From assembly GCA_964293155.1 (NCBI GenBank), contig CAXYYA010000028.1, positions 1 through 48,569 on the forward strand: a stretch of DNA of 48,569 nucleotides, given 5' to 3'. The stretch is from an uncultured Bacteroidales bacterium. GTDB taxonomy: Bacteria; Bacteroidota; Bacteroidia; Bacteroidales; Dysgonomonadaceae. Of this stretch, positions 5,975-46,420 are shown one piece after another. The first letter of the stretch is position 1; every line of letters begins with the position of its first letter. The notes below the pieces were generated by a model, which was not told where the DNA came from, ran no database searches, and saw only the letters and a list, made by a program, of their open reading frames with translations. A program made the position numbers and the translations under genes.

Positions 5975-6008
5975 AAGCGAGTTCCGACTCGCTTGATTTT
6001 TTTATTTT
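5975..6008. terminator. Second hairpin, AAGCGAGTTCCGACTCGCTT, followed by GATTTTTTTATTTT. It is a copy of a hairpin repeat also found upstream of hisS.
   Basis: Perfect 7-bp stem plus T-run on the plus strand. A near-identical hairpin lies at 7432-7451. Confidence 0.45.
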
Positions 6009-6012
6009 AAAG

Positions 6013-7374
6013 CTATTTGGAAATCGCTTTACCCAATTCTTCACCCGAAACCAATTTCTGTTCTCCCGATTTCATATCCTTCAACGTAATTTTACCTTCC
6101 TTCATTTCGTTTTCTCCCATTAACGCGACAAAAGGGATATTGTTGCTGTCGGCATACGACAGTTGTTTCTTCATTTTGGCGGCTTCGGGATAAATTTCGG
6201 CACAAATTCCTTTGTTTCGCAATTGGGCGAGGAGAGGCAAGATATAAGATTCTTCCTTATCGCCGAAATTCACAAAAAGCACATCGGTGGCGTGTGTAGA
6301 GTTTTCGGGGAAAAGGTTGAGTTGGTTGAGCACATCGTAAATGCGGTCGGCACCGAAGGAGATGCCGACACCCGATACGCCCGGCAGTCCGAAAATGCCC
6401 GTCAGGTTATCGTAACGGCCGCCGCCGGTGATGCTACCGATCTCTGCGTCAAGCGCTTTTACTTCGATAATAGCGCCGGTATAATAGTTGAGTCCGCGGG
6501 CAAGGGTAAGGTCGAGTTCAAGTTCGCAACCGATGCTTAATAAACCGGTTTTGTTGAGAATAAATTCCAGCTCCTCCACACCTTTCAATCCGGTTTGGGA
6601 GACCGAAAGCACGCTTTTCAGCGTTGCAAGTTTGTCGTTGTTCGTGCCTTCGAGCAATATGATAGGCTGCAATTGTTGAATAGCGGCTTCGGAGATTCCT
6701 TTTTCCCGAAGTTCTTCGTTCACCTTTTCCAACCCGATTTTATCCAATTTATCGATAGCCACCGTGATGTCGGTAATTTTATCGGCTTCGCCGATGATTT
6801 CGGCAATTCCCGAAAGTATTTTTCGGTTGTTGAGTTTTACGGATACACGGATATTTAATCTGCGAAAAACTTCATCAATGATCTGGATCAGTTCCACTTC
6901 GTTGAGCAGCGAATCAGAACCCACCACATCGGCGTCGCATTGAAAAAATTCGCGATAACGACCCTTTTGCGGACGGTCGGCACGCCACACGGGCTGAATC
7001 TGAAACCGCTTGAATGGAAACGAAATTTCGTTGCGGTGCATTACCACGTAGCGGGCAAACGGTACGGTAAGGTCGTATCGCAATCCTTTTTCCGAAATTT
7101 TGTTGGCGGTTTTAGCCGAGTTTCCTTCGGTAACGTCATCGGCGTGCATACTCGACAGGAAATCGCCCGAGTTCAATATCTTAAACAGCAGTTTATCGCC
7201 TTCTTCGCCGTATTTTCCCATCAATGTGGAAAGGTTTTCCATGGCGGGCGTTTCGATCTGGCGGAAGCCATATAGGCGGTACACTTCTTTAATGGTGTCG
7301 AAAATATAGTTGCGTTTCGCCATCTCTTCGGGCGAAAAATCGCGCGTTCCTTTGGGTATGGACGGTTTTTGCAT
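6013..7374 (-). CDS. hisS: Histidine--tRNA ligase
   Basis: 453 aa. The N-terminus [18 protein letters not shown] is the class-II HisRS motif-1 region. Length and the anticodon-binding C-domain are consistent. Confidence 0.95.
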
Positions 7375-7431: not shown

Positions 7432-7451
7432 AAGCGAGTTCCAACTCGCTT
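7432..7451. repeat. Palindromic hairpin AAGCGAGTTCCAACTCGCTT, the second copy of the hisS-flanking repeat
   Basis: 19/20 identical to 5975-5994, in the same orientation. Confidence 0.4.
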
Positions 7452-7639: not shown

Positions 7640-9310
7640 ATGACTATTCTTCCCGAAAAAATAGAAAATTATTCCGGCATCATCGCTTTTATGCTTAAGT
7701 ATCGTAACAGCCACGTTTTTAACACCGTTGTGGATAATGCCGCGGACTTAGACGATGACGAAAAAACCGAAAGCGATGATTCAGGAATAACTCCGCAGGA
7801 TTTTGCAAACGATCTTAAACAGATGGGCCCCGTGTATGTGAAGTTGGGACAACTCTTATCCACACGTCCCGATTTATTACCCGAAGAATATTTGGATGAA
7901 CTGGCAAATTTGCAGGACGATGTAGAACCCATTGGATATGGGAAGATTGAGCGGTTGATAGAAGAGGAATTGGGTGTAAGAATTTCCAAAGCTTTCAAGA
8001 CATTTGATCCGGCACCCTTAGCCAGCGCTTCCATCGGCCAGGTACACAGGGCGGAATTGCCATCGGGCAAAAAAGTGGCCGTTAAGGTGCAGCGTCCCGG
8101 TATCCGGAAACAGTTTACGGAAGAACTGGAAACCTTAAAAAACATGGTGGACATGGCCGTAAAATACACGAAAACAGCCGATAAATACGCGCTGGACGAT
8201 GTTCTGGATGAACTCAGCCACATGTTAATGAACGAGCTGGACTATAAAATGGAGGCTCAAAGTCTGGTTATTTTGGGACAAAATCTCAAAGAATACAAGC
8301 GTCTTATCGTTCCTCAGCCGGTGATGGATTATTGCACTCCAAAAATCTTAACGATGGATTATGTGGAAGGTAAGAAAGTTACAAAAGTATCGCCATTTAC
8401 CAAAACGGAAGTGGATTTCACTCCATTGATCGATGAGTTAGTTAAGTCCTATCTTCAACAAGTGGTTATTGACGGTTTTGCACACGCCGATCCGCATCCG
8501 GGTAATGTACATTTTACTCCTGACAATAAAATAGCGCTGATAGATTTGGGCATGGTAGCCAAATTTAGCAATACGTTGAAAGATCAAATGTTGCGTTTGC
8601 TCCTTGCCATGAGTGAAATGTCGGGCGATAAGATCGTGGATATTTTACTGGGAATGAGCACGTATGACGAGACTGCAATGATAAAAGATTTCAGGAAAGA
8701 TGTTAACAGATTAGTTCTGGATAATCAAATCAGTATCGCTAAAGATTTAAAAACAGGCCGACTGATTATTCAAATGAATCGGATGGCTGCCGAGCGAAAC
8801 ATAAAAATAGCCGTAGAACTAAATCTGCTCGGCAAAATATTGTTGAATATTGATCAGATTATTGCAACATTAACTCCCGATTATGATTTTCAGAAAGCTA
8901 TAAACGAAAATGCCGAACGGTTGATGACGCAGAAAATGACGCAGGAATTGAAACCTGAAAACATGTTTAAAATGCTGTTGGAAACCAAAAAATTGGGCGA
9001 AAATTTACCGGAACGTTTAAACAAAATTTCTCAACGTTTAGCGGACAACGAGTTTGAAATTAAAGTGAATGCGATTGACGAAAAACGTTTTACCGATGGT
9101 TTTCAGAAAGTGGCTAACCGAATTACTGTGGGGTTAATAATTGCGGCACTTATTCTTGCCGCTTCTATGCTCATGCGTATGCCCACAAGTTTTACCATTC
9201 TCGGATATCCCGGGTTACCCCTTATTTTCTTTTTAATTGCATCCGGAGCAGGGATTATGTTGGTTTATAATATCATATCGAAAGACGAATATTTCCGAAA
9301 AAGAAAATAG
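7640..9310 (+). CDS. ABC1/AarF/UbiB-family atypical protein kinase with a C-terminal membrane anchor
   Basis: 556 aa. The ABC1 kinase-like core (GQVHRAEL, VAVKVQRPG, HADPHPGNV, IDLGMVA) is followed by two C-terminal TM helices. Confidence 0.85.
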   Translation: MTILPEKIENYSGIIAFMLKYRNSHVFNTVVDNAADLDDDEKTESDDSGITPQDFANDLKQMGPVYVKLGQLLSTRPDLLPEEYLDELANLQDDVEPIGYGKIERLIEEELGVRISKAFKTFDPAPLASASIGQVHRAELPSGKKVAVKVQRPGIRKQFTEELETLKNMVDMAVKYTKTADKYALDDVLDELSHMLMNELDYKMEAQSLVILGQNLKEYKRLIVPQPVMDYCTPKILTMDYVEGKKVTKVSPFTKTEVDFTPLIDELVKSYLQQVVIDGFAHADPHPGNVHFTPDNKIALIDLGMVAKFSNTLKDQMLRLLLAMSEMSGDKIVDILLGMSTYDETAMIKDFRKDVNRLVLDNQISIAKDLKTGRLIIQMNRMAAERNIKIAVELNLLGKILLNIDQIIATLTPDYDFQKAINENAERLMTQKMTQELKPENMFKMLLETKKLGENLPERLNKISQRLADNEFEIKVNAIDEKRFTDGFQKVANRITVGLIIAALILAASMLMRMPTSFTILGYPGLPLIFFLIASGAGIMLVYNIISKDEYFRKRK

Positions 9311-9490
9311 CGGGAACATCATTTTAAAATTAACGTGAGTTCAATACAAGAAAAGGCTCTTAATTGATTTATAATAAGGTAATAAGGTCTTTGTTCTATT
9401 TTAATTTAACTCTACTAAGGTTGCTTTTAAAAAATAAGGTTTCCAATACGCTTTGAACCCTGCCTACCGCAGGCAAGCTTATTTACAAAT

Positions 9491-9839
9491 ATGATTATCC
9501 GCATAATGTCCTACATCAATTGCCACGTCCCTTTACAGGCTGTGTAAAAAACATCGCAACAGTATCAATTTGTCATTCCGACGATAGGAGGAATCTTATT
9601 TGTCATAAATTATAGACTCTTCACTCCGCAAAGCTGCGTTCAGAGTGACAAAAAGACACCTAATTTTCATTTTTACACAGCCTCTTTAGGGCGTGGTTTT
9701 TGAGATACAGAGCAGATAGGCTTTAGCCGAAATTTATACTATTATTGGGCTGAAGCCCGTAATTCTTAGACATTATTATCCCACGACTTAAAAATCGTGG
9801 CAATAGATAAAGCCGTTAGGACACTTTGCGGATAATCAT
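9491..9839. mobile_element. MITE-like element of the outer family (TIR ATGATTATCCGC / GCGGATAATCAT) carrying a nested 148-bp insertion
   Basis: Terminal inverted repeats and subterminal hairpins (CCACGTCCC...GGGCGTGG, CCACGACTTAAAAATCGTGG). With the 9536-9683 insertion removed, it is near-identical in reverse complement to 46226-46420. Confidence 0.7.
9536..9683. mobile_element. Nested 148-bp MITE-like element of the inner family (TIR CAGGCTGTGTAAAAA...TTTTTACACAGCCT) with a 5-bp CTTTA target-site duplication
   Basis: Flanked by CTTTA at 9531-9535 and 9684-9688. The uninterrupted homologous site at 46226-46420 reads CCTTTAGGGCG. A second copy lies at 23143-23291. Confidence 0.65.
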
Positions 9840-9984
9840 TTTTACGAATAATATAACCTTAATAGGAATCAACGCAAGCAAAGTTTCAGCCTTATTAGCT
9901 TATTTACTGATTCTTATGAAATGAGTTGTGTCAAACTCACGTTAATTATTTCTTTCGCATTTTACACGGATTAGAACCGATAAT

Positions 9985-11580
9985 TTAGCTACTGCACACC
10001 TGCAAAGCGGCCGGAACAATATCAATGGTTACGGGAGTTGTGCCGCTGATCTCACCGTCAATTACCAGTTTCTGCGTCGGGTGTGTATCTAACTCCACGT
10101 GTTTCCCCTGAAAATGCTTCACGAATTCGCTACCTTCGGTAGGTTTGTCTTTGAGCAACTGCACCAATGTTTCGGCGGCATTTGCTTCGTTTTCCACGTT
10201 CACGATTACCGTCACGTCCAGCAGCCCGTCGTCCGGTAACGGTTCAGAACCTCCCTGTGCAAAAATGGATGTTTTAGGTGCAGTGTTTGCGATTGTTACG
10301 CTTCCGGTTTGAAACGTGTAGGTTTGATCATCAACTTTTAACGTTGCTTCAAAAATATCTTCTTTTTTAATGTGTTTTATTCCTCCGAGAATGTATCCGA
10401 AAGCGCCCCATTCGTCTTTTAAGCCGTCTTCGGCTTCTTCGGTCATTCCGCGCTCCAAACCTGCGCCTGCAAGCAAAACCATGTAAGAGTCGTTTATTTT
10501 CGCTATATCAATTTTGCGCGTTTTTCCCGAAGTGATCACGGCGCACGCCGTTTCAATGGGTTTCAACCGGATGCCATCGCCGTACAACATGGAAGCCAGG
10601 GCGTTGCTCGTCCCGAACGGAATTATTCCCATTACTGCGTCGGTATTTACCAAGGCTTGAGCCACCTGTGTTACGGTACCGTCGCCTCCGGCGGCAACCA
10701 CAAATTGCTTCCCTTCATTCACCAATTGTTGGGCAATGTCTTTAGCCTGATTTTGCTCTGTAGCTTCATGGAACGTGAGTTCGAAAAAGCTTTTCAACAG
10801 TTCGTTGACTTTATCCAGTTTTTCTTCTTTGGCTGTTCCTGCTGCTGCATTATAGATGATATGCAGTTCATCGGATTTCTTTTCCATGGATATCCCGAAG
10901 CTGTTCAGACTGGCGAATTGTCGTGTATTCGGCTTAACGTTCGGCCTGACTTTCCGGACTTCGTCAATCAAATCCTGATACGAACGCGACGGGTCCAGAA
11001 ATTTGAGATACGCCAAAAGTACGGTCACCGACCGACCTTGTCCCAATGCGCAGTGGATCAAAACTTCTTTTCCGTCTTTTCGTTGCTGATCAATCCATCT
11101 GACAGCCATTTCCAATTGGTTTTTCCGGGGACTATTGTGATCCATTACCGGGATGTTCAGATATTCTACATCACGTCCTAAAAATTGTGTTTCAATGGCA
11201 TCGAATTCAGCCGTAACGTCCAGTATGGCATTGATAGGACTCTCTTTGAGCGATTTCAGATCGGTGAACACCAACCGTCTGCTCAACCATAATCCGTCAC
11301 GGATTTCCTGCAATGGTGGCACATTGTCTCTTGATCGGGCGATCAGATTAAAAATGGTGGCGCCCAGCAAAACCGGAAATATGGCAATTTTTATGTAAAA
11401 CGGTAGTCGCCCGCCCTTGCTTTTAAAAAGCATTTCGCCGAAGTCGGCGAAATAAGCGATCGCGTAATAAAGCGATGAGAGCGATATCCAGATTAAAATG
11501 ATCTGTAGGATAAGAGGAGTGAAAAAACTAAGTACGGCAACAAGTACCGAAAAAATCAGGTAGATGTATCCTCTGTTCAT
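9985..11580 (-). CDS. Membrane-anchored fusion protein: dual-specificity/tyrosine phosphatase domain plus diacylglycerol-kinase-family (YegS-like) lipid kinase domain
   Basis: 531 aa with N-terminal TM helices. The CX5R phosphatase motif is VLIHCALGQGRSVTV. The DAGK_cat glycine motif is FVVAAGGDGTVTQV and a YegS-like C-domain follows. Confidence 0.75.
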   Translation of the reverse strand: MNRGYIYLIFSVLVAVLSFFTPLILQIILIWISLSSLYYAIAYFADFGEMLFKSKGGRLPFYIKIAIFPVLLGATIFNLIARSRDNVPPLQEIRDGLWLSRRLVFTDLKSLKESPINAILDVTAEFDAIETQFLGRDVEYLNIPVMDHNSPRKNQLEMAVRWIDQQRKDGKEVLIHCALGQGRSVTVLLAYLKFLDPSRSYQDLIDEVRKVRPNVKPNTRQFASLNSFGISMEKKSDELHIIYNAAAGTAKEEKLDKVNELLKSFFELTFHEATEQNQAKDIAQQLVNEGKQFVVAAGGDGTVTQVAQALVNTDAVMGIIPFGTSNALASMLYGDGIRLKPIETACAVITSGKTRKIDIAKINDSYMVLLAGAGLERGMTEEAEDGLKDEWGAFGYILGGIKHIKKEDIFEATLKVDDQTYTFQTGSVTIANTAPKTSIFAQGGSEPLPDDGLLDVTVIVNVENEANAAETLVQLLKDKPTEGSEFVKHFQGKHVELDTHPTQKLVIDGEISGTTPVTIDIVPAALQVCSS

Positions 11581-16813: not shown

Positions 16814-17509
16814 ATGAGCACTTTTTTACAAATTGAAACAGCTACACCGGTTTGTTCGGCTACCCTTTCAAAAAACGGAGAAATCGTTTACAATAAAGAA
16901 GACTTTACGGGACAATCGCATGCGGTAAAACTCGGCGTGTTTGTGGAAGAAACAATGCAACACGTCCGCCGTGAAGGGCTGCATGTGGATGCCGTTGTGG
17001 TGAGTAGCGGCCCGGGCTCTTATACCGGATTGCGCATTGGCGTGTCCGAAGCAAAAGGCCTCAGCTATGGCCTCGGCGCGCCGCTGATCGCTATCCCCAC
17101 GCCTTTGATCATGGCGCACATGTTGAAAGACGAAGTAGAAGAAGATGCTCTTCTTTGTCCGATGATAGATGCGCGGCGAATGGAAGTCTATGCCACTTTC
17201 TTCGATACTTCGCTGAACGTTGTTCGCCCCACAGCCGCCGATATTGTAACGGAAAACAGCTATTCCGACCTGTTGGAAAACCATCGCGTGGTGTTTTTCG
17301 GTAACGGAGCCGATAAGTGTAAAACGATGATCACACATCCCAACGCCCGATTTTTACCGGATGTTTATCCGCTCGCTTCGGCCATGACGGCGCTCGCCGA
17401 AAAATCTTTCACAGAAAAAGATTTCGTGGACACGGCTTATTTTGAACCTTTTTACTTAAAAGAATTTGTGGCCACCGTGCCGAAAAATAAAGTATTGTCT
17501 AATATATAA
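16814..17509 (+). CDS. tsaB: tRNA threonylcarbamoyladenosine (t6A) biosynthesis protein TsaB (YeaZ-like)
   Basis: Kae1/YeaZ fold motifs are present (VVSSGPGSYTGLRIG). The track ORF starts at 16745 inside the upstream terminator, so the start was moved to the Met at 16814 (MSTFLQIETATPV). Confidence 0.8.
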   Translation: MSTFLQIETATPVCSATLSKNGEIVYNKEDFTGQSHAVKLGVFVEETMQHVRREGLHVDAVVVSSGPGSYTGLRIGVSEAKGLSYGLGAPLIAIPTPLIMAHMLKDEVEEDALLCPMIDARRMEVYATFFDTSLNVVRPTAADIVTENSYSDLLENHRVVFFGNGADKCKTMITHPNARFLPDVYPLASAMTALAEKSFTEKDFVDTAYFEPFYLKEFVATVPKNKVLSNI

Positions 17510-17514
17510 ATTAA

Positions 17515-17703
17515 TTGATTATGAGCGATTTTAAAATTAAAGTTCAGCCCAACGGCCCGCTTATCGTGACCGGAAAATTCAAATTGGAATTACAAAACGG
17601 AACAGTTGAAGAAAAAGAAACGGCCACGCTTTGTCGTTGTGGACATTCGCAGAATAAACCTTTTTGCGACGGATCGCACCGGAAAGTTGGTTTTGAAGGG
17701 TAG
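17515..17703 (+). CDS. CDGSH iron-sulfur domain protein
   Basis: 62 aa containing CRCGHSQNKPFCDGSH. Confidence 0.75.
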   Translation: MIMSDFKIKVQPNGPLIVTGKFKLELQNGTVEEKETATLCRCGHSQNKPFCDGSHRKVGFEG

Positions 17704-17744
17704 AGGGAAAAGGTCTGTACAACATTTGTTATAAAATTATTTTT

Positions 17745-17960
17745 ATGATTATCCGCAAAGTGTCCTAATATCAATTGCCACGGCTTTCAAGCCGTGGAAG
17801 GTATGAATTTAATTAAATTGGCTTTAGCCGAAATTTATGTAAACTTCCCGATTGCGGAATAAGTTGGGCTAAAGCCCATCTCATAGATACATCTAATTAT
17901 CCACGCCATAAATGGCGTGGCAATTGACACGGTTAATTAGGAAGGTTTGCGGATAATCAT
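17745..17960. mobile_element. MITE-like element, outer family, divergent variant (216 bp)
   Basis: Termini are ATGATTATCCGCAAAGTGTCCTAA...GCGGATAATCAT. The subterminal hairpins are CCACGGCTTTCAAGCCGTGG and CCACGCCATAAATGGCGTGG. The central GGCTTTAGCC/GGGCTAAAGCCC palindromes are shared with the other copies. Confidence 0.65.
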
Positions 17961-18455
17961 TATTATTTTAAACGCTAAGACGCCAAGCCGCTACGTTATT
18001 TTCTCATTTAAAAGAAAGCCTGTCTCTCAGATTATTAGTGAGGTGAAAAATAACTCTTTGCGCCTTCCCGTCTTTGCGCCTTTGCGTACATAAAACGCTT
18101 TTATATGCTGATGTGCGTTATTTTTTGATGAAATGTTGTTAGCGATGTAGTCCCTATAATTATCGGATCACTTCAAACAATGATAAATTGAAAAGATTAT
18201 CATGATTTTGATACAACTTCTTCAATTAACCATAAACTTAGAAACTGTTTTGAATTTTTTCTGACGATGTTTTTTATTCATTTTTTGATGGATTTGGATT
18301 CCTGCCTGCGGCAGGCGGGTTCGTTACGAATCAAATAGCGGGCTATTTGGAAGAAAGGAAAATTCAAAGACGCAAAAAAGGGCAAAAAACAGTCTGAAAG
18401 AATCAGAAAAATAGTTAAAAAACAAGATTCGTAAAATTCAAAACAGTTTCTTACA

Positions 18456-19535
18456 ATGCAAATGAAAACAAAATCATTTTTTTTACTCTGTTGTCTTCTG
18501 TTTGTTTCACTGGTGATTTATGCCGAAACACCTCTCACCGTAAGGGGATTATGCTTAGGTGCACCGGCTAAGGACGATGTTCCCGCATTTGTGAAACTGA
18601 TTGACGAAAAACTAGCGCCCGACAGCGTGAACACGTTGGTGCTGCGCATTGATTACCGCTACGAATACAAATCGCATCCCGAGCTGAGAGCCGATAACCC
18701 GTTATCGGAAGCCGATGTGAAAAAAATTGTGGCCGCTTGCAAGCGGCACAATATTAGGGTGATCCCGCAGGTGAATTTATTAGGGCATCAATCGTGGGCA
18801 AGCCAGACAGGCAAGTTGTTGGAAGTTTATCCGCAATTCGATGAGACCCCGTCCATTAAACTGCCGAAAGATTATAAATGGCCGAATGCCGACGGATTGT
18901 ACTGTAAAAGTTACTGTCCGCAGCATCCAGAAGTGCACGATGTTGTATTCGAGGTAGTGGATGAAATTGTGCAGGCGTTTGAATCGGATGCGTTTCACGC
19001 GGGAATGGACGAAGTGTTCTACATTGCGCATCCCGATTGTCCCCGGTGCAAAGGTGAAGACCCTGCTGTTCTGTTCGCGGGCGAAGTAACGAAAATTCGC
19101 AACCATTTAGCCGATAACGGCAAGGAGCTATGGATTTGGGGCGACCGGCTGATTGATGGAAAAACAACCGGTATCGGTTTGTGGGAAGGCAGTTACAACA
19201 ATACACACCGGGCTATTGATCTTATTCCCAAAGACGTGGTGATCAACGACTGGCATTACGAAAAACCGCATCCAACACCCGTGCTTTTTGCTGCCAAAGG
19301 TTTCGATGTGATTATTTGTCCCTGGAGAATACCCGATGTTGCCGTAAAGGAGGCTGCGATGATGAAGATGCTGCGTGAAAACGCTTCGGACGAAATGCGG
19401 CCGCGATATGCAGGCATCATGCATACCTTCTGGAGCGATGCACGCACGTTTATAGACGGGATGAACAATACTACAGAAAAAGGCAAAAACGATCCTTCCG
19501 TTCAAACATTCAAGGAATTGGTGAAGGTTTGGTAG
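18456..19535 (+). CDS. Secreted GH20-like (beta-N-acetylhexosaminidase-family catalytic TIM-barrel) protein
   Basis: Signal peptide present. RGLCLGA...NTLVLRID...IRVIPQVNLLGHQSW...FHAGMDEV mirrors the GH20 RG-x-LD, H-x-H-x-D, VIPEID-x-PGH and HIGGDE pattern. Confidence 0.6.
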   Translation: MQMKTKSFFLLCCLLFVSLVIYAETPLTVRGLCLGAPAKDDVPAFVKLIDEKLAPDSVNTLVLRIDYRYEYKSHPELRADNPLSEADVKKIVAACKRHNIRVIPQVNLLGHQSWASQTGKLLEVYPQFDETPSIKLPKDYKWPNADGLYCKSYCPQHPEVHDVVFEVVDEIVQAFESDAFHAGMDEVFYIAHPDCPRCKGEDPAVLFAGEVTKIRNHLADNGKELWIWGDRLIDGKTTGIGLWEGSYNNTHRAIDLIPKDVVINDWHYEKPHPTPVLFAAKGFDVIICPWRIPDVAVKEAAMMKMLRENASDEMRPRYAGIMHTFWSDARTFIDGMNNTTEKGKNDPSVQTFKELVKVW

Positions 19536-21661: not shown

Positions 21662-22987
21662 CTATCTTCTTCTCATATTTTTCATCATCGCTTTTCCGCC
21701 GCCGGTAGTCATCATACGCATCATTTTGCGGGTCTCGTCGAACTGTTTGAGCAGTTTGTTCACTTCCTGAACACTGGTTCCGCTTCCCAAAGCGATGCGT
21801 GCGCGGCGGCTGCCGTTCAGTATCTCGGGATTGGTGCGTTCTTTCGGCGTCATTGAGCGGATGATGGCTTCGATGCCTCTGAAAGCATCGTCGTCAATAT
21901 CCATATCTTTGATCTGTTTTCCAACACCGGGTATCATGGATGCCAAATCCTTGAGGTTACCCATTTTTTTGATTTGCTGGATTTGGGAAATGAAATCGTT
22001 GAAATCGAATTGATTTTTGGCGATCTTTTTCTGTAGGCGACGGGCTTCCTCTTCGTCGTATTGTTCCTGCGCTTTCTCAACCAGCGAAACAATGTCGCCC
22101 ATGCCGAGAATACGGTCGGCCATACGTTCGGGATGGAAAACATCAATCGCATCCAGCTTTTCGCCCGTTCCCACAAACTTAATAGGTTTGTTCACAACCG
22201 AGCGAATGGAAAGCGCGGCTCCGCCGCGGGTATCGCCGTCCAGCTTGGTAAGCACAACGCCGTTGAAATCGAGCCTGTCGTTAAATTCTTTTGCGGTGTT
22301 CACCGCATCCTGTCCGGTCATGGCATCCACAACGAAAAGGATTTCCTGCGGATTTACGGCATTCTTGATGGCGGTGATCTCGTTCATCATCTGCTCGTCA
22401 ATGGCCAGACGTCCTGCCGTGTCAATGATCACGAGGTCTTTACCGTGCTGACGGGCGTATTGAATGGCGTTTTGCGCGATCTTGACCGGATTTTTGTTCT
22501 CTTCTTCCGAATACACCGGCACGCCGATTTGCTCGCCCAGCACTTTCAACTGCTCAATGGCCGCAGGACGATATACGTCGCCGGCAACCAACAACGGATT
22601 TTTGCCGCGCTTGGATTTGAGCATGTTCGCCAGCTTTCCCGAAAACGTAGTTTTACCCGAACCTTGTAACCCCGACATCAGAATAATCGCCGGATTGCCC
22701 TTGATGTTAATATCGGTGGCGGTACCGCCCATGAGGGTTGCCAACTCGTCGTGGACGATCTTAACCATCAACTGGTCGGGTTTCACGGCGGTAAGCACGT
22801 CTTGCCCCATCGCTTTCTCCTTGACGGTTTCGGTGAAATCTTTGGCAGTTTTATAGTTCACGTCGGCATCGAGCAACGCGCGGCGCACTTCTTTTAGCGT
22901 AGAAGCAACGTTAATTTCGGTGATTCTTCCTTCACCTTTCAGTATCTTGAACGACCTTTCGAGCCTGTCACTTAAATTTTCAAACAT
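21662..22987 (-). CDS. ffh: Signal recognition particle protein Ffh
   Basis: 441 aa. The N/G domain carries GLQGSGKTT and the Met-rich M domain ends [10 protein letters not shown]. Confidence 0.95.
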
Positions 22988-23142
22988 CGTAATTTATCCT
23001 ATATTTTTATTGGGCTACAAAGATAGTGAAAATGCTTTATTTGGCAAAGACGTAAAGTTTATCCGCAATGTTTCGAGGCTGAGAATTTTCAGTAGTCATG
23101 GCTAAAGCCGGTGTTCACGTTTGCTGGGTTCTCCGCTTTAAA

Positions 23143-23291
23143 CAGGCTGTGTAAGAAACATCGCAACAGTATCATTTTGTCATTCCGACGATAGGAGGAA
23201 TCTTTATTTGTCATAAATTATAAACTCTTCACTCCGCAAAGCTGCGTTCAGAGTGACAAAAAGACACCTAATTTTCATTTTTACACAGCCT
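23143..23291. mobile_element. Second copy of the inner-family MITE, 149 bp and about 97 percent identical to 9536-9683
   Basis: Same TIRs and internal sequence. It is flanked by TTAAA/CTAAA. An isolated outer-family terminus, ATTGCGGATAATCA, lies at 23316-23329. Confidence 0.6.
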
Positions 23292-23850
23292 CTAAAAGCA
23301 GGGTTATTAAGACGTATTGCGGATAATCAAAAAAATGACTATTTTTGTGAACGGGAAAAACATTTGTAAATGCCCATTAATTTGGTTGATTATTAAATCG
23401 CATAAATGAAGATGTTGGCAACGATTTGTAAATGTAAACTACAAAAATTTGGTAAATGGACAAGATTTGGTTAATAACAATAGCAACTGCAATTTTTTTG
23501 ATCATAAATTTTCTTTTTTATAAAACGCTCAACGTGTATTACAAAGAGGAATTTGGCAAAAAGACGTGAAAATTAGGAGGAGGGAGAATATACTTTTGGC
23601 AGGCATCAATAATTGTCAGCACAATAGGTGCGTTGATAGCAATTTATTTTTTAAAATAGTAAACGTTCATCACACCCTTCCCGCTTACGCGGATTTCTCG
23701 TCATAACGAGCGCACAGGTTCGAGCGGTAATCGGTGTGTGCCGCAGGCAAGAGTTTACTTCGTAACACACGCTTTGCAAAAGCGCGCGAGCACAAGCGGG
23801 ACACGAAGTTTGTAACTTCGTGAACGAAGGCACAGCCATCGTCTCCCAAT

Positions 23851-36079: not shown

Positions 36080-36109
36080 AAAAATGGGGAGCGAATCCCC
36101 ATTTTTTTG
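36080..36109. terminator. Intrinsic terminator after the EF-hand-repeat gene
   Basis: AAAAAATGGGGA-GCGAA-TCCCCATTTTTTT. Confidence 0.6.
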
Positions 36110-36123
36110 TGGTTGGTGCGTGG

Positions 36124-36687
36124 TTATTTTGTGGTTTCCCTACGGTCGCAAATACCGTTTTTATTGGCGTCCACAAAATTTACCGCACTGCCTTTTCCAT
36201 TCCGAAGGCCGGTGCCTTTCCCTGTACCGCGTCCCTGGCGCGGTGTTCCGTTTTCGAAGTTGTCACAAATGCCGTCTTTGTCGGCATCTACGAAATTTGC
36301 TCCACCACCTCTGCCGTTACGCAGTCCGTTGCCATAGCCTTGTCCGCGTCCTCCACGGGGAGTTCCGTTTTCGAAATTGTCGCACACGCCATCTTTATCG
36401 GCATCCACAAAGAAGCGTCCTTGTCCTCTGCCGTTGCGTAATCCCTGGCCTTTGCCTTGTCCGCGGCCGCTACCGTCGAGCAGTCGTTGTTTGCCGTTGG
36501 CATTCGGATTTCCGGGTGTTCCGTTCTCGAAATTATCGCAAACGCCGTTGTTGTTTTTGTCCACAAATGCAGGTCCGGTTTGAGCGGTTTTCGCCGTTTC
36601 CTTTGCTGCCTGATTTTGATTTTGGGCGGTTGCTAATCCTATGGTGGCAACCAGCGCCATTGCAGTGATAAATACTTTTGTTTTCAT
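36124..36687 (-). CDS. Secreted protein with four canonical EF-hand calcium-binding loops separated by Gly/Arg-rich linkers
   Basis: 187 aa with a signal peptide. There are four repeats FVD(A/K)(D/N)K(D/N)G(V/I)CDNFENGTP, and each matches the EF-loop D-x-D-x-D-G-x-x-D-x-x-E and contains one Cys. The linkers are GRGQGKGQGLRNGRGQG. Confidence 0.6.
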   Translation of the reverse strand: MKTKVFITAMALVATIGLATAQNQNQAAKETAKTAQTGPAFVDKNNNGVCDNFENGTPGNPNANGKQRLLDGSGRGQGKGQGLRNGRGQGRFFVDADKDGVCDNFENGTPRGGRGQGYGNGLRNGRGGGANFVDADKDGICDNFENGTPRQGRGTGKGTGLRNGKGSAVNFVDANKNGICDRRETTK

Positions 36688-46105: not shown

Positions 46106-46225
46106 GATCGCTTATGCGCAAATATATATGTTAAAAACGTCATTTGCAAGTAAATTAACAGATAATATTTTATGTTTTAGAGCAGGTTTTTTGGGAAAAA
46201 TGATAAGGTTAACCATCAATTTTTC

Positions 46226-46420
46226 ACATTATCCGCGAAGTGTTCTAACGGCTTTATCCATTGCCACGACTTTTAAGTCGTGGGATAATGATGTCTAAGA
46301 ATTACGGGCTTTAGCCCAATAATAGTATAAATTTCGGCTAAAGCCTATCTGCTCTGTATCTCAAAAACCACGCCCTAAAGGGACGTGGCAATTGATGTAG
46401 GACATTATACGGATAATCAT
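46226..46420. mobile_element. MITE-like element, outer family, intact copy (195 bp) lacking the nested insert
   Basis: It is the reverse complement of 9491-9839 minus the insert at 9536-9683. One terminus is degenerate (ACATTATCCGC). Confidence 0.7.

Follow-up and report, generated by a model that had tools for sequence, protein, structure and literature searches.

Element A, a probable non-autonomous IS1595-family MITE with a four-hairpin interior in an uncultured Bacteroidales bacterium

Insertion sequences such as IS1397 and ISKpn1 target palindromic repeats and insert into REP/BIME loops. IS1595 is a well-known family, and MITEs are ordinary bacterial mobile DNA, tens of thousands of which have been catalogued in Bacteroidota (PMC11602168). 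Members of the IS1595 family are described as normally duplicating 8 bp of target (PMC8101967). Here, we describe a short intergenic repeat, named element A, that touches on each of these systems. Its termini and target sites are those of IS1595, its interior is a hairpin module that occurs elsewhere without IS1595 ends, and two of its copies are interrupted by a second small element, named element B. Searches of the literature, using sequence strings and IS1595 MITEs in Bacteroidales as queries, returned no prior description of the TIR family of element A or of the hairpin module.

Copies, target sites and termini of element A

The window, i.e. the whole 48.5-kb stretch of DNA that was analyzed, contains four copies of element A (9491-9839, 17745-17960, ∼23055-23330, and 46225-46420). 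These copies, the parts of the second one (which is the one originally flagged), and the two copies of element B are as follows.

9490..9840, + strand: MITE A copy 1, TIRs at 9491-9513 and 9817-9839, 196 bp without its nested insert
9482-9489 and 9841-9848: target-site duplication (TSD) of copy 1, TTTACAAA and TTTACGAA, identical at 7/8 positions
9536..9684, + strand: element B copy 1, a 149-bp MITE with TIR (C)AGGCTGTGTAAAAA, unrelated to element A
17744..17961, + strand: MITE A copy 2 (flagged), 216 bp between ATGATT and AATCAT
17736-17743 and 17962-17969: TSD of copy 2, ATTATTTT on both sides, 8/8
17745..17768, + strand: left TIR of copy 2, ATGATTATCCGCAAAGTGTCCTAA
17771..17797, + strand: tag TCAATTG and outer hairpin 1 of copy 2, CCACGGC-TTTCAA-GCCGTGG
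17820..17877, + strand: central palindrome of copy 2, with GGCTTTAGCC at 17820-17829, the conserved GAAATTTAT, a spacer, and GGGCTAAAGCCC at 17866-17877
17901..17927, + strand: outer hairpin 4 of copy 2, CCACGCCA-TAAA-TGGCGTGG, followed by the tag CAATTGA
17937..17960, − strand: right TIR of copy 2, reverse complement ATGATTATCCGCAAACCTTCCTAA
23055..23330, + strand: MITE A copy 3, degenerate, ∼122 bp without element B
23143..23292, + strand: element B copy 2, 97.3% identical to the first
46225..46420, − strand: MITE A copy 4, 196 bp, in the orientation opposite to copy 1

The end pattern ATGATTATCCGYRWANNNTYCTA, allowing up to three mismatches, is found at seven sites in the window (9491+, 9839−, 17745+, 17960−, 23330−, 46225+, and 46420−) versus 0.05 expected, and none of 100 dinucleotide-preserving shuffles reaches seven. 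The shared termini that a first-pass annotation of this DNA had reported are therefore where it had placed them, and the MITE-like family that it had proposed is borne out by IS1595-family TIRs and 8-bp TSD. Its catalogue of copies needed some revision. The sequence at 23316-23329, taken for an isolated terminus fragment, is really the right end of a degenerate full copy (∼23055-23330). In this copy, 16 of 23 positions of the left end (AAGTTTATCCGCAATG at 23055) agree with the TIR, the right end departs from the pattern at three positions, and GGCTAAAGCC is present at 23100. The copy listed as 46226-46420 exists, but its true start is 46225, with one decayed end (CACATTATCC).

Copies 1 and 4 are nearly identical. 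Once element B and one TTTA are removed, copy 1 aligns without gaps to the reverse complement of 46225-46420 over 196 bp, with 94.9% identity that spans the TIRs as well as the interior, 36 kb away and in the opposite orientation. Copy 17745 is ∼68% identical to both. The TIRs are 24-25 nt long, and their arms are 88% complementary in copy 17745 and up to 100% between copies. Two internal features singled out in the first-pass annotation are indeed present and are found nowhere in the window outside element A copies, namely CCACG...CGTGG hairpins at five sites (9781, 17778, 17901, 46264, and 46368) and GGCTTTAGCC / GGGCTAAAGCCC central palindromes (9719, 17820, 17866, 23100, 46306, and 46336). 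The longest ORF lying wholly within copy 17745 has 31 aa. No ORF of the window spans the copies, which are thus not parts of a larger single-copy gene.

Target sites were analyzed by comparing the flanking 8-mers of 18 TIR-bounded elements, with a one-base offset on each side. These 8-mers are identical at 7/8 positions or more in 10 of the 18 elements, versus 0.65% of mismatched left/right controls, and the signal appears only at offset combinations summing to 2. The duplicated targets are strongly AT-rich. Besides the duplications bordering copies 1 and 2, one of the insertion sequences discussed below (in L110) is flanked by TAATTTTA/TAATTTTA. The flanks of copy 46225 agree at 5/8 positions only and copy 23055 has no recognizable TSD, and hence both look like old immobilized insertions; with their decayed ends, they are probably immobile fossils. 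The base just outside ATGATT/AATCAT varies (A or T, once C) and is not always complementary, so that the boundary of the element is uncertain by one base.

Insertion sequences of ∼1.08 kb in genomes of Tannerella and Paludibacteraceae have the 23-nt end ATGATTATCCGCAAAGTGTCCTA as their TIR. Over its first 23 nt, copy 17745 is identical to the left TIR of a 1093-bp element in a Tannerella MAG (L099:464-1556) and of a 1075-bp element in a long-read Paludibacteraceae MAG (L110:3272-4346). Each contains one ORF, of 317 aa in L099 and 259 aa (truncated) in L110, and both ORFs have a Pfam DDE_Tnp_IS1595 domain (PF12762). The L099 ORF also has a Zn_ribbon_IS1595 domain (PF12760) and scores 184 bits on the NCBIfam model for IS1595 family transposases (NF033547, cut-off 75). 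The closest annotated relatives are IS1595-family transposases from Bacteroides and Chondrinema plasmids (46-48% identity), with values of 48% for the transposase of a Bacteroides xylanisolvens plasmid and 42% for ISBbi1. With only 42-48% identity between the partner transposase and annotated ISBbi1-type proteins, the parent is a family member that has not been named. The TIR contains the last four codons and the stop of the transposase (…TLCG-TAA) and, as assessed by tblastn, the transposase or its C-terminal 20-60 residues adjoins the TIR in more than 20 further loci. Nine of these are contig ends of one Paludibacter MAG, eight of them at 75% identity, which indicates that the autonomous element is multi-copy in related genomes.

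A scan with the end pattern, limited to one genome per species, identified at least 117 loci. Among the matches listed, most are in Paludibacter, Paludibacteraceae, Tannerellaceae, Parabacteroides, Bacteroides, and other Bacteroidales MAGs, and very many lie 25-140 nt from a contig end, which is the signature of a multi-copy repeat breaking short-read assemblies. The window copies share only the terminus (24-54 nt) with these listed loci, not the interior. Inward-facing pairs of ends delimit short elements of 94-360 bp with diverse interiors, in addition to the two ∼1.08-kb elements. One of the short elements (L110:1190-1283, 94 bp) has both TIRs and a single TTGCCACG..CGTGGCAA hairpin, and seems to have arisen by deletion from the same composite as element A; a further MITE with the same TIRs (in L085) is a deletion derivative of the insertion sequence. 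In viral contigs, the TIR pattern has three matches and the conserved 19-mer of the interior (see below) has none. By eye, the TIR contains no good match to an outward Bacteroidota-type promoter (TAnnTTTG).

Together, the IS1595 TIRs and the AT-rich 8-bp duplications identify the copies of element A as non-autonomous MITEs of the IS1595 family, a reading to which we assign a probability of roughly 0.87.

The interior hairpin module and the nested element B

The interior of element A is organized as a tag (CAATTG), an outer hairpin, GGCTTTAGCC-GAAATTTAT...GGGCTAAAGCCC, a second outer hairpin, and a second tag. Copy 17745 is predicted to fold into a multi-branched structure comprising the TIR stem, closure by CAATTG, a pair of outer hairpins and, in the center, one long hairpin, with z-scores relative to shuffles of −9.4 as DNA and −8.5 as RNA. 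A metagenome scan with the internal 19-mer that is conserved best (GGCTTTAGCCGAAATTTAT) returned 42 loci, only one of which has an IS1595 TIR nearby. A perfect hairpin of at least 5 bp lies upstream of the 19-mer in 30 of 40 distinct sites; in ∼27 of them, 17-26 nt separate the end of the hairpin from the 19-mer, and 23 have a TTTA loop. A tag of the CAAT(A/T)G type, which is CAATAG in bare relatives, generally precedes the hairpin, and a mirror half consisting of GGCTAAAGCC, the second outer hairpin, and CWATTGA is present at 13 sites. In many metagenome contigs, the module is thus found without IS1595 ends, as half-units, full units, or clusters. A profile built from 14 units (nhmmer) detected second copies within individual short loci and, in L143, six or more in a row, and none in the at least 117 TIR-selected Bacteroidales loci. 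Since the module exists independently of IS1595 ends, element A is best described as a composite.

A bare copy of the CCACG subtype (in L155) is on a contig with 74-78% nucleotide identity to genes of the window. Among the other contigs with a module, L128 has a gene for a T9SS sorting-domain protein, consistent with an origin in Bacteroidota. TA dinucleotides often, although inconsistently, flank TCAATWG...CWATTGA in bare modules.

In an alignment of 14 sequences, the outer hairpins are paired at 96 and 94%, with changes on both sides in 7/8 and 8/8 pairs, respectively. Their covariation score is 0.455, versus at most 0.09 in slid controls and 0.16 in shuffles. The central GGCTTTAGCC/GGCTAAAGCC pair is invariant and is therefore uninformative on covariation. 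With such strong compensatory change in its outer stems, the module resembles REP/BIME repeats.

Two copies of element A are themselves interrupted. The first copy of element B splits hairpin 1 of copy 1 within its TTTA loop and is flanked by a TTTA duplication (9532-9535 and 9685-9688). This explains why the copy at 9491-9839, correctly assigned to the family in the first-pass annotation, is 349 bp long instead of 196 bp. The second copy of element B is inside the palindrome GCTT-TAAA-AGC of copy 3, flanked by TAAA (23139-23142 and 23293-23296). The uninterrupted hairpin CCACGTCCCTTTAGGGCGTGG in copy 46225 is in effect an empty site for element B. The TIR of element B has no match in any of the loci collected for this analysis. 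Element B, the completeness of the fourth copy, and the separate dispersal of the interior module were all absent from the first-pass annotation.

How the composite arose can be considered at two levels. We infer that IS1595 ends captured, or were invaded by, a REP-dimer-like module and that the whole unit was then amplified. At a more general level, it is conceivable, and we propose it tentatively, that the four-hairpin core represents an undescribed REP/BIME-like superfamily of Bacteroidota, captured by IS1595 here and with hairpin loops that are targeted by element B. Such a superfamily would be defined by the CAAT(A/T)G tag, the outer hairpin with its TTTA loop, and the invariant GGCTTTAGCCGAAATTTAT with its mirror image, and it would exist as singletons, dimers, and clusters. 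Were this true, a non-autonomous element of one class would be hitch-hiking on the transposase of another, and targeting of the loops by element B would imply that the hairpins extrude in vivo, as cruciforms or as single-stranded hairpins.

Because the hairpin core also occurs without IS1595 ends, it could in principle spread by another route. A REP-associated tyrosine (HUH, Y1) transposase, or RAYT, might mobilize the module in the form of single-stranded DNA, the IS1595-like ends being incidental. Bare modules do have the organization of REP, with half-units, inverted dimers, and the tandem cluster in L143 (PMC3733652), their outer hairpins stay paired while the sequence changes, and a conserved tag is found at the foot of the hairpin. 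Moreover, a related species (L164, 86% ABC1 identity) encodes a RAYT (NF047646, 101.7 bits). However, the REP that flanks this RAYT (L164:4868-5416) is another one, GGCGCAAGTTTGTAACTTGTGCC, with no occurrence in the window, and the tag of the module is neither GTAG nor CGTC. Module-bearing loci contain no RAYT as assessed by tblastn, which is a weak negative considering that these loci have short flanks. In the window, IS1595 TIRs enclose every module, and the well-preserved copies are flanked by direct repeats of 8 bp, which REP/RAYT transposition does not make. The two youngest copies are equal in length and 95% identical including their TIRs. We therefore consider it very unlikely that a RAYT moved the copies in the window, and non-autonomous transposition as an IS1595-family MITE accounts for them better.

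Gene context, possible RNA roles and mobilization

All four copies are intergenic, as the first-pass annotation had noted, but they do not all follow gene ends. Copy 9491 is between two convergent genes, encoding an ABC1/UbiB-like protein (stop at 9310) and a DAGK/phosphatase protein (stop at 9985). Copy 17745 starts 42 nt past the stop of a 62-aa ORF (17515-17703) and is 496 nt before the start of a GH20 gene; the 62-aa ORF is of the CDGSH type, as its homolog in L172 has a Pfam zf-CDGSH domain. Copy 46225 is 104 nt after the stop (46524) of a Band_7/flotillin-like gene. The exception is copy 23055, which is 5' of ffh, 68 nt upstream of its start codon at 22987.

Contigs for comparison of these sites came from look-ups with the Ffh and GH20 proteins and from a search for ABC1 homologs, and exact-protein look-ups with ABC1 (7640-9310), the 62-aa ORF, Band_7, and TsaB returned no contigs. 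A Logan contig of the same species (L160, ABC1 protein 99%) stops 26 nt into the TIR at the 9491 site, as expected for a multi-copy repeat. Copy 17745 is unchanged in L172, an ENA contig from this organism with 99.975% identity over 4 kb, in which a stretch of 752 nt that includes the insertion is identical. In two relatives with 86-89% protein identity (L161 and L164), the intergenic regions are rearranged and non-comparable. Among these same-species contigs and relatives, there is thus no unoccupied orthologous site.

The hairpins and their position raise the question of a role in RNA, and the first-pass annotation had suggested that they could act as terminators or be transcribed as structured RNAs. 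According to this explanation, the copies would be a small RNA gene, a 3'UTR stabilizer, or a terminator, and their spread would reflect function. The predicted RNA fold is far better than that of shuffles and the hairpin stems covary. Bare half-modules have A- and T-runs around hairpin 1, between a gene end and the next start, an arrangement reminiscent of a bidirectional terminator, and effects of MITEs on mRNA stability are known from other bacteria (PMC3733652). Several observations speak against such a role. Rfam 15 has zero matches at the gathering score in the whole window, and no match for the element at E ≤ 10 in 17700-18000 either, where the best hit is a plant miRNA model at 21.8 bits versus a threshold of 102 bits. 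A terminator scan of 17400-18500 found one weak site, at the 5-bp GGCTTTAGCC hairpin, versus 1.1 expected from shuffles, and in that region the CCACG hairpins of copy 17745 are not followed by a T-run. Moreover, the element is nearly palindromic and occurs in either orientation relative to its neighbors, with no preferred strand, properties more in keeping with a DNA-level element than with an RNA gene, and its TIRs and TSD are explained by transposition, not by an RNA function. Neither of the two suggested roles is thus supported by these scans, and we judge it very unlikely that an RNA function underlies the family as a whole. Exaptation of single copies is possible and is compatible with the MITE reading; lying near gene boundaries, copies could affect transcript ends or expression. 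Finally, one might take the copies for pieces of a larger single-copy feature, or for chance or segmental duplicates of a palindrome between genes. This notion draws on their AT-rich, low-complexity flanks only and is refuted by the number of TIR matches, the dispersal of the copies across 37 kb, in either orientation and between unrelated flanking sequences, the same TIR in at least 117 loci from many genomes, and the lack of any ORF spanning them.

Returning to the reading of element A as an IS1595-family MITE, no IS1595 transposase is encoded in the 48.5-kb window as assessed by tblastn. With this, and with no unoccupied orthologous site among the contigs compared, mobilization in trans in the source genome is inferred, most likely by an IS1595-family transposase. 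In such a scenario, an insertion sequence at another place in the genome would supply a zinc-ribbon/DDE transposase, which would bind both TIRs and insert element A into AT-rich 8-bp targets. Repair of the staggered cut would then duplicate the target, which would give 8-bp repeats one base outside ATGATT...AATCAT. The cargo between the TIRs is the four-hairpin module, not leftover transposase DNA, and the AT-rich target preference combined with selection against genic insertions would keep the copies intergenic.

Comparison with known systems

In practical terms, these repeats should be masked or labeled as IS1595-type MITEs during annotation, and they explain why short-read assemblies break at these sites in this organism and in related Bacteroidales. 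The composite architecture and the nested element targeted to loops are modestly interesting leads. The more interesting of these is the interior, i.e. a covarying hairpin module that is found elsewhere without IS1595 ends and the loops of which have been hit twice by element B. If confirmed genome-wide, it would add a REP-like system and a repeat-targeting element to a phylum in which such systems are little described.

With IS1595 insertion sequences, element A shares its TIR (23 nt identical in L099 and L110) and an AT-rich 8-bp target duplication. Unlike them, the window copies measure 196-216 bp, have no transposase, and have an interior unrelated to that of the insertion sequence. The likeness to REP/BIME/REPIN concerns the interior module only, which has tagged GC-rich hairpins with covarying stems and comes as singletons, inverted dimers with small spacer stem-loops, and clusters (PMC3733652). 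It differs from these repeats by its CAAT(A/T)G tag, which is not GTAG or CGTC, by having no associated RAYT in module-bearing loci (which have short flanks), and by always being found, in the window, inside IS1595 TIRs, with 8-bp TSD on well-preserved copies. Element B resembles the palindrome-targeting insertion sequences IS1397 and ISKpn1 in that its two insertions each fall exactly within the 4-nt AT loop at the tip of a GC-stemmed palindrome in element A, with a 4-bp duplication of the loop (TTTA or TAAA); unlike them, it is a 149-bp non-coding MITE, for which two insertions have been seen. Element A as a whole is most readily compared with Correia/NEMIS in Neisseria, RUP in Streptococcus pneumoniae, ERIC/YPAL, and Nezha, all of which are, like it, short, non-coding, TIR-bounded, multi-copy, and intergenic, form a long imperfect hairpin, and are presumed to be mobilized in trans. 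What sets element A apart from them is that its TIRs and the length of its TSD come from IS1595, and that its interior is not a deletion remnant of an insertion sequence but an independently dispersed four-hairpin module.

Element B and derivatives carrying the element A TIRs

Element A, the IS1595-type MITE with four intergenic copies in the window, itself carries insertions of a second MITE-like element, element B. This is 149-150 bp long and is bounded by the terminal inverted repeat (TIR) (C)AGGCTGTGTAAAAA.

9536-9684 (window): element B, first copy
23143-23292 (window): element B, second copy
L110:1190-1283: 94-bp mini-MITE with element A TIRs and only one TTGCCACG..CGTGGCAA hairpin
L085:91-353: 263-bp element derived from the insertion sequence itself by internal deletion, with the same TIRs as element A

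The two window copies of element B are 97.3% identical. Each interrupts a GC-stemmed element A palindrome precisely at its 4-nt AT loop, and the loop is duplicated as TTTA in one case and as TAAA in the other. Because three Logan contigs selected by the exact ffh protein (L166-L168) start in its interior, element B is multi-copy. Its TIR found no match across the other loci compared in this analysis.

The element A TIRs also bound shorter derivatives in other contigs. The mini-MITE in L110, a contig carrying a ∼1.08-kb IS1595-family element, is flanked by a perfect 8-bp target-site duplication (ATCACTTT). A further subfamily, with subterminal repeats TTTCGGTGCGCTGCACC, is represented in contig L115 by two MITEs in tandem. 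In L099, another contig with a ∼1.08-kb element, the IS1595-family transposase frame ends within the TIR (L099:464-482) that the window copies also carry, the reverse complement of TTATCCGCAAAGTGT encoding T-L-C-G followed by a TAA stop. Coding constraint on the parent insertion sequence may therefore explain some of the conservation of the TIR.

An inverted repeat upstream of GH20 and other repeats

18240-18451 (window): 212-bp segment bounded by a perfect 19-nt inverted repeat, AGAAACTGTTTTGAATTTT / AAAATTCAAAACAGTTTCT

The GH20 start codon lies 5 nt beyond the end of this segment, which may represent a promoter region capable of inversion or, alternatively, a further repeat. At least four same-organism assemblies (L173-L176) break at or just inside its right arm, and we infer a break there in L166; L172, a same-organism contig, continues through the segment in the same orientation as the window.

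Elsewhere in the window, hisS (6013-7374) has near-identical hairpins on either side, AAGCGAGTTCCGACTCGCTT (5975-5994) and AAGCGAGTTCCAACTCGCTT (7432-7451). Tandem repeats that have diverged to 72-83% identity and recur every 117 nt (36145-36500) fall within overlapping ORFs (36084-36687).

Bare hairpin modules and REP-like systems

Bare half-modules of the element A interior surround the conserved 19-mer in nine metagenome contigs (L118, L119, L123, L125, L132, L139, L149, L151, and L157). Each consists of the tag ATCAATAG, a hairpin between A- and T-runs that resembles a bidirectional terminator, a spacer of about 20 nt, and GGCTTTAGCCGAAATTTAT. In six of them (L118, L119, L123, L125, L149, and L157) an ATG follows about 10-100 nt downstream, which suggests that these half-modules are a terminator/promoter-region cassette.

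L164:4868-5416 (GCA_023424395.1, JAFADY010000017.1): REP-associated tyrosine transposase (RAYT) gene, NF047646, 101.7 bits

At least seven copies of the hairpin repeat GGCGCAAGTTTG(T/C)AACTTGTGCC, which is absent from the window, surround this gene. Gene and repeats together (L164:4600-6320) form a REP-RAYT system, and the genome that holds them is related to the window's organism (ABC1 proteins 86% identical). The hairpin module itself recurs in contig L143 (Ga0316612_1000252), where six or more whole or partial copies of the subtype CCTCCAGC-TTTA-GCTGGAGG lie within about 1.5 kb (L143:5275-6750), the first three at about 210-bp spacing; this arrangement is a BIME-like cluster.
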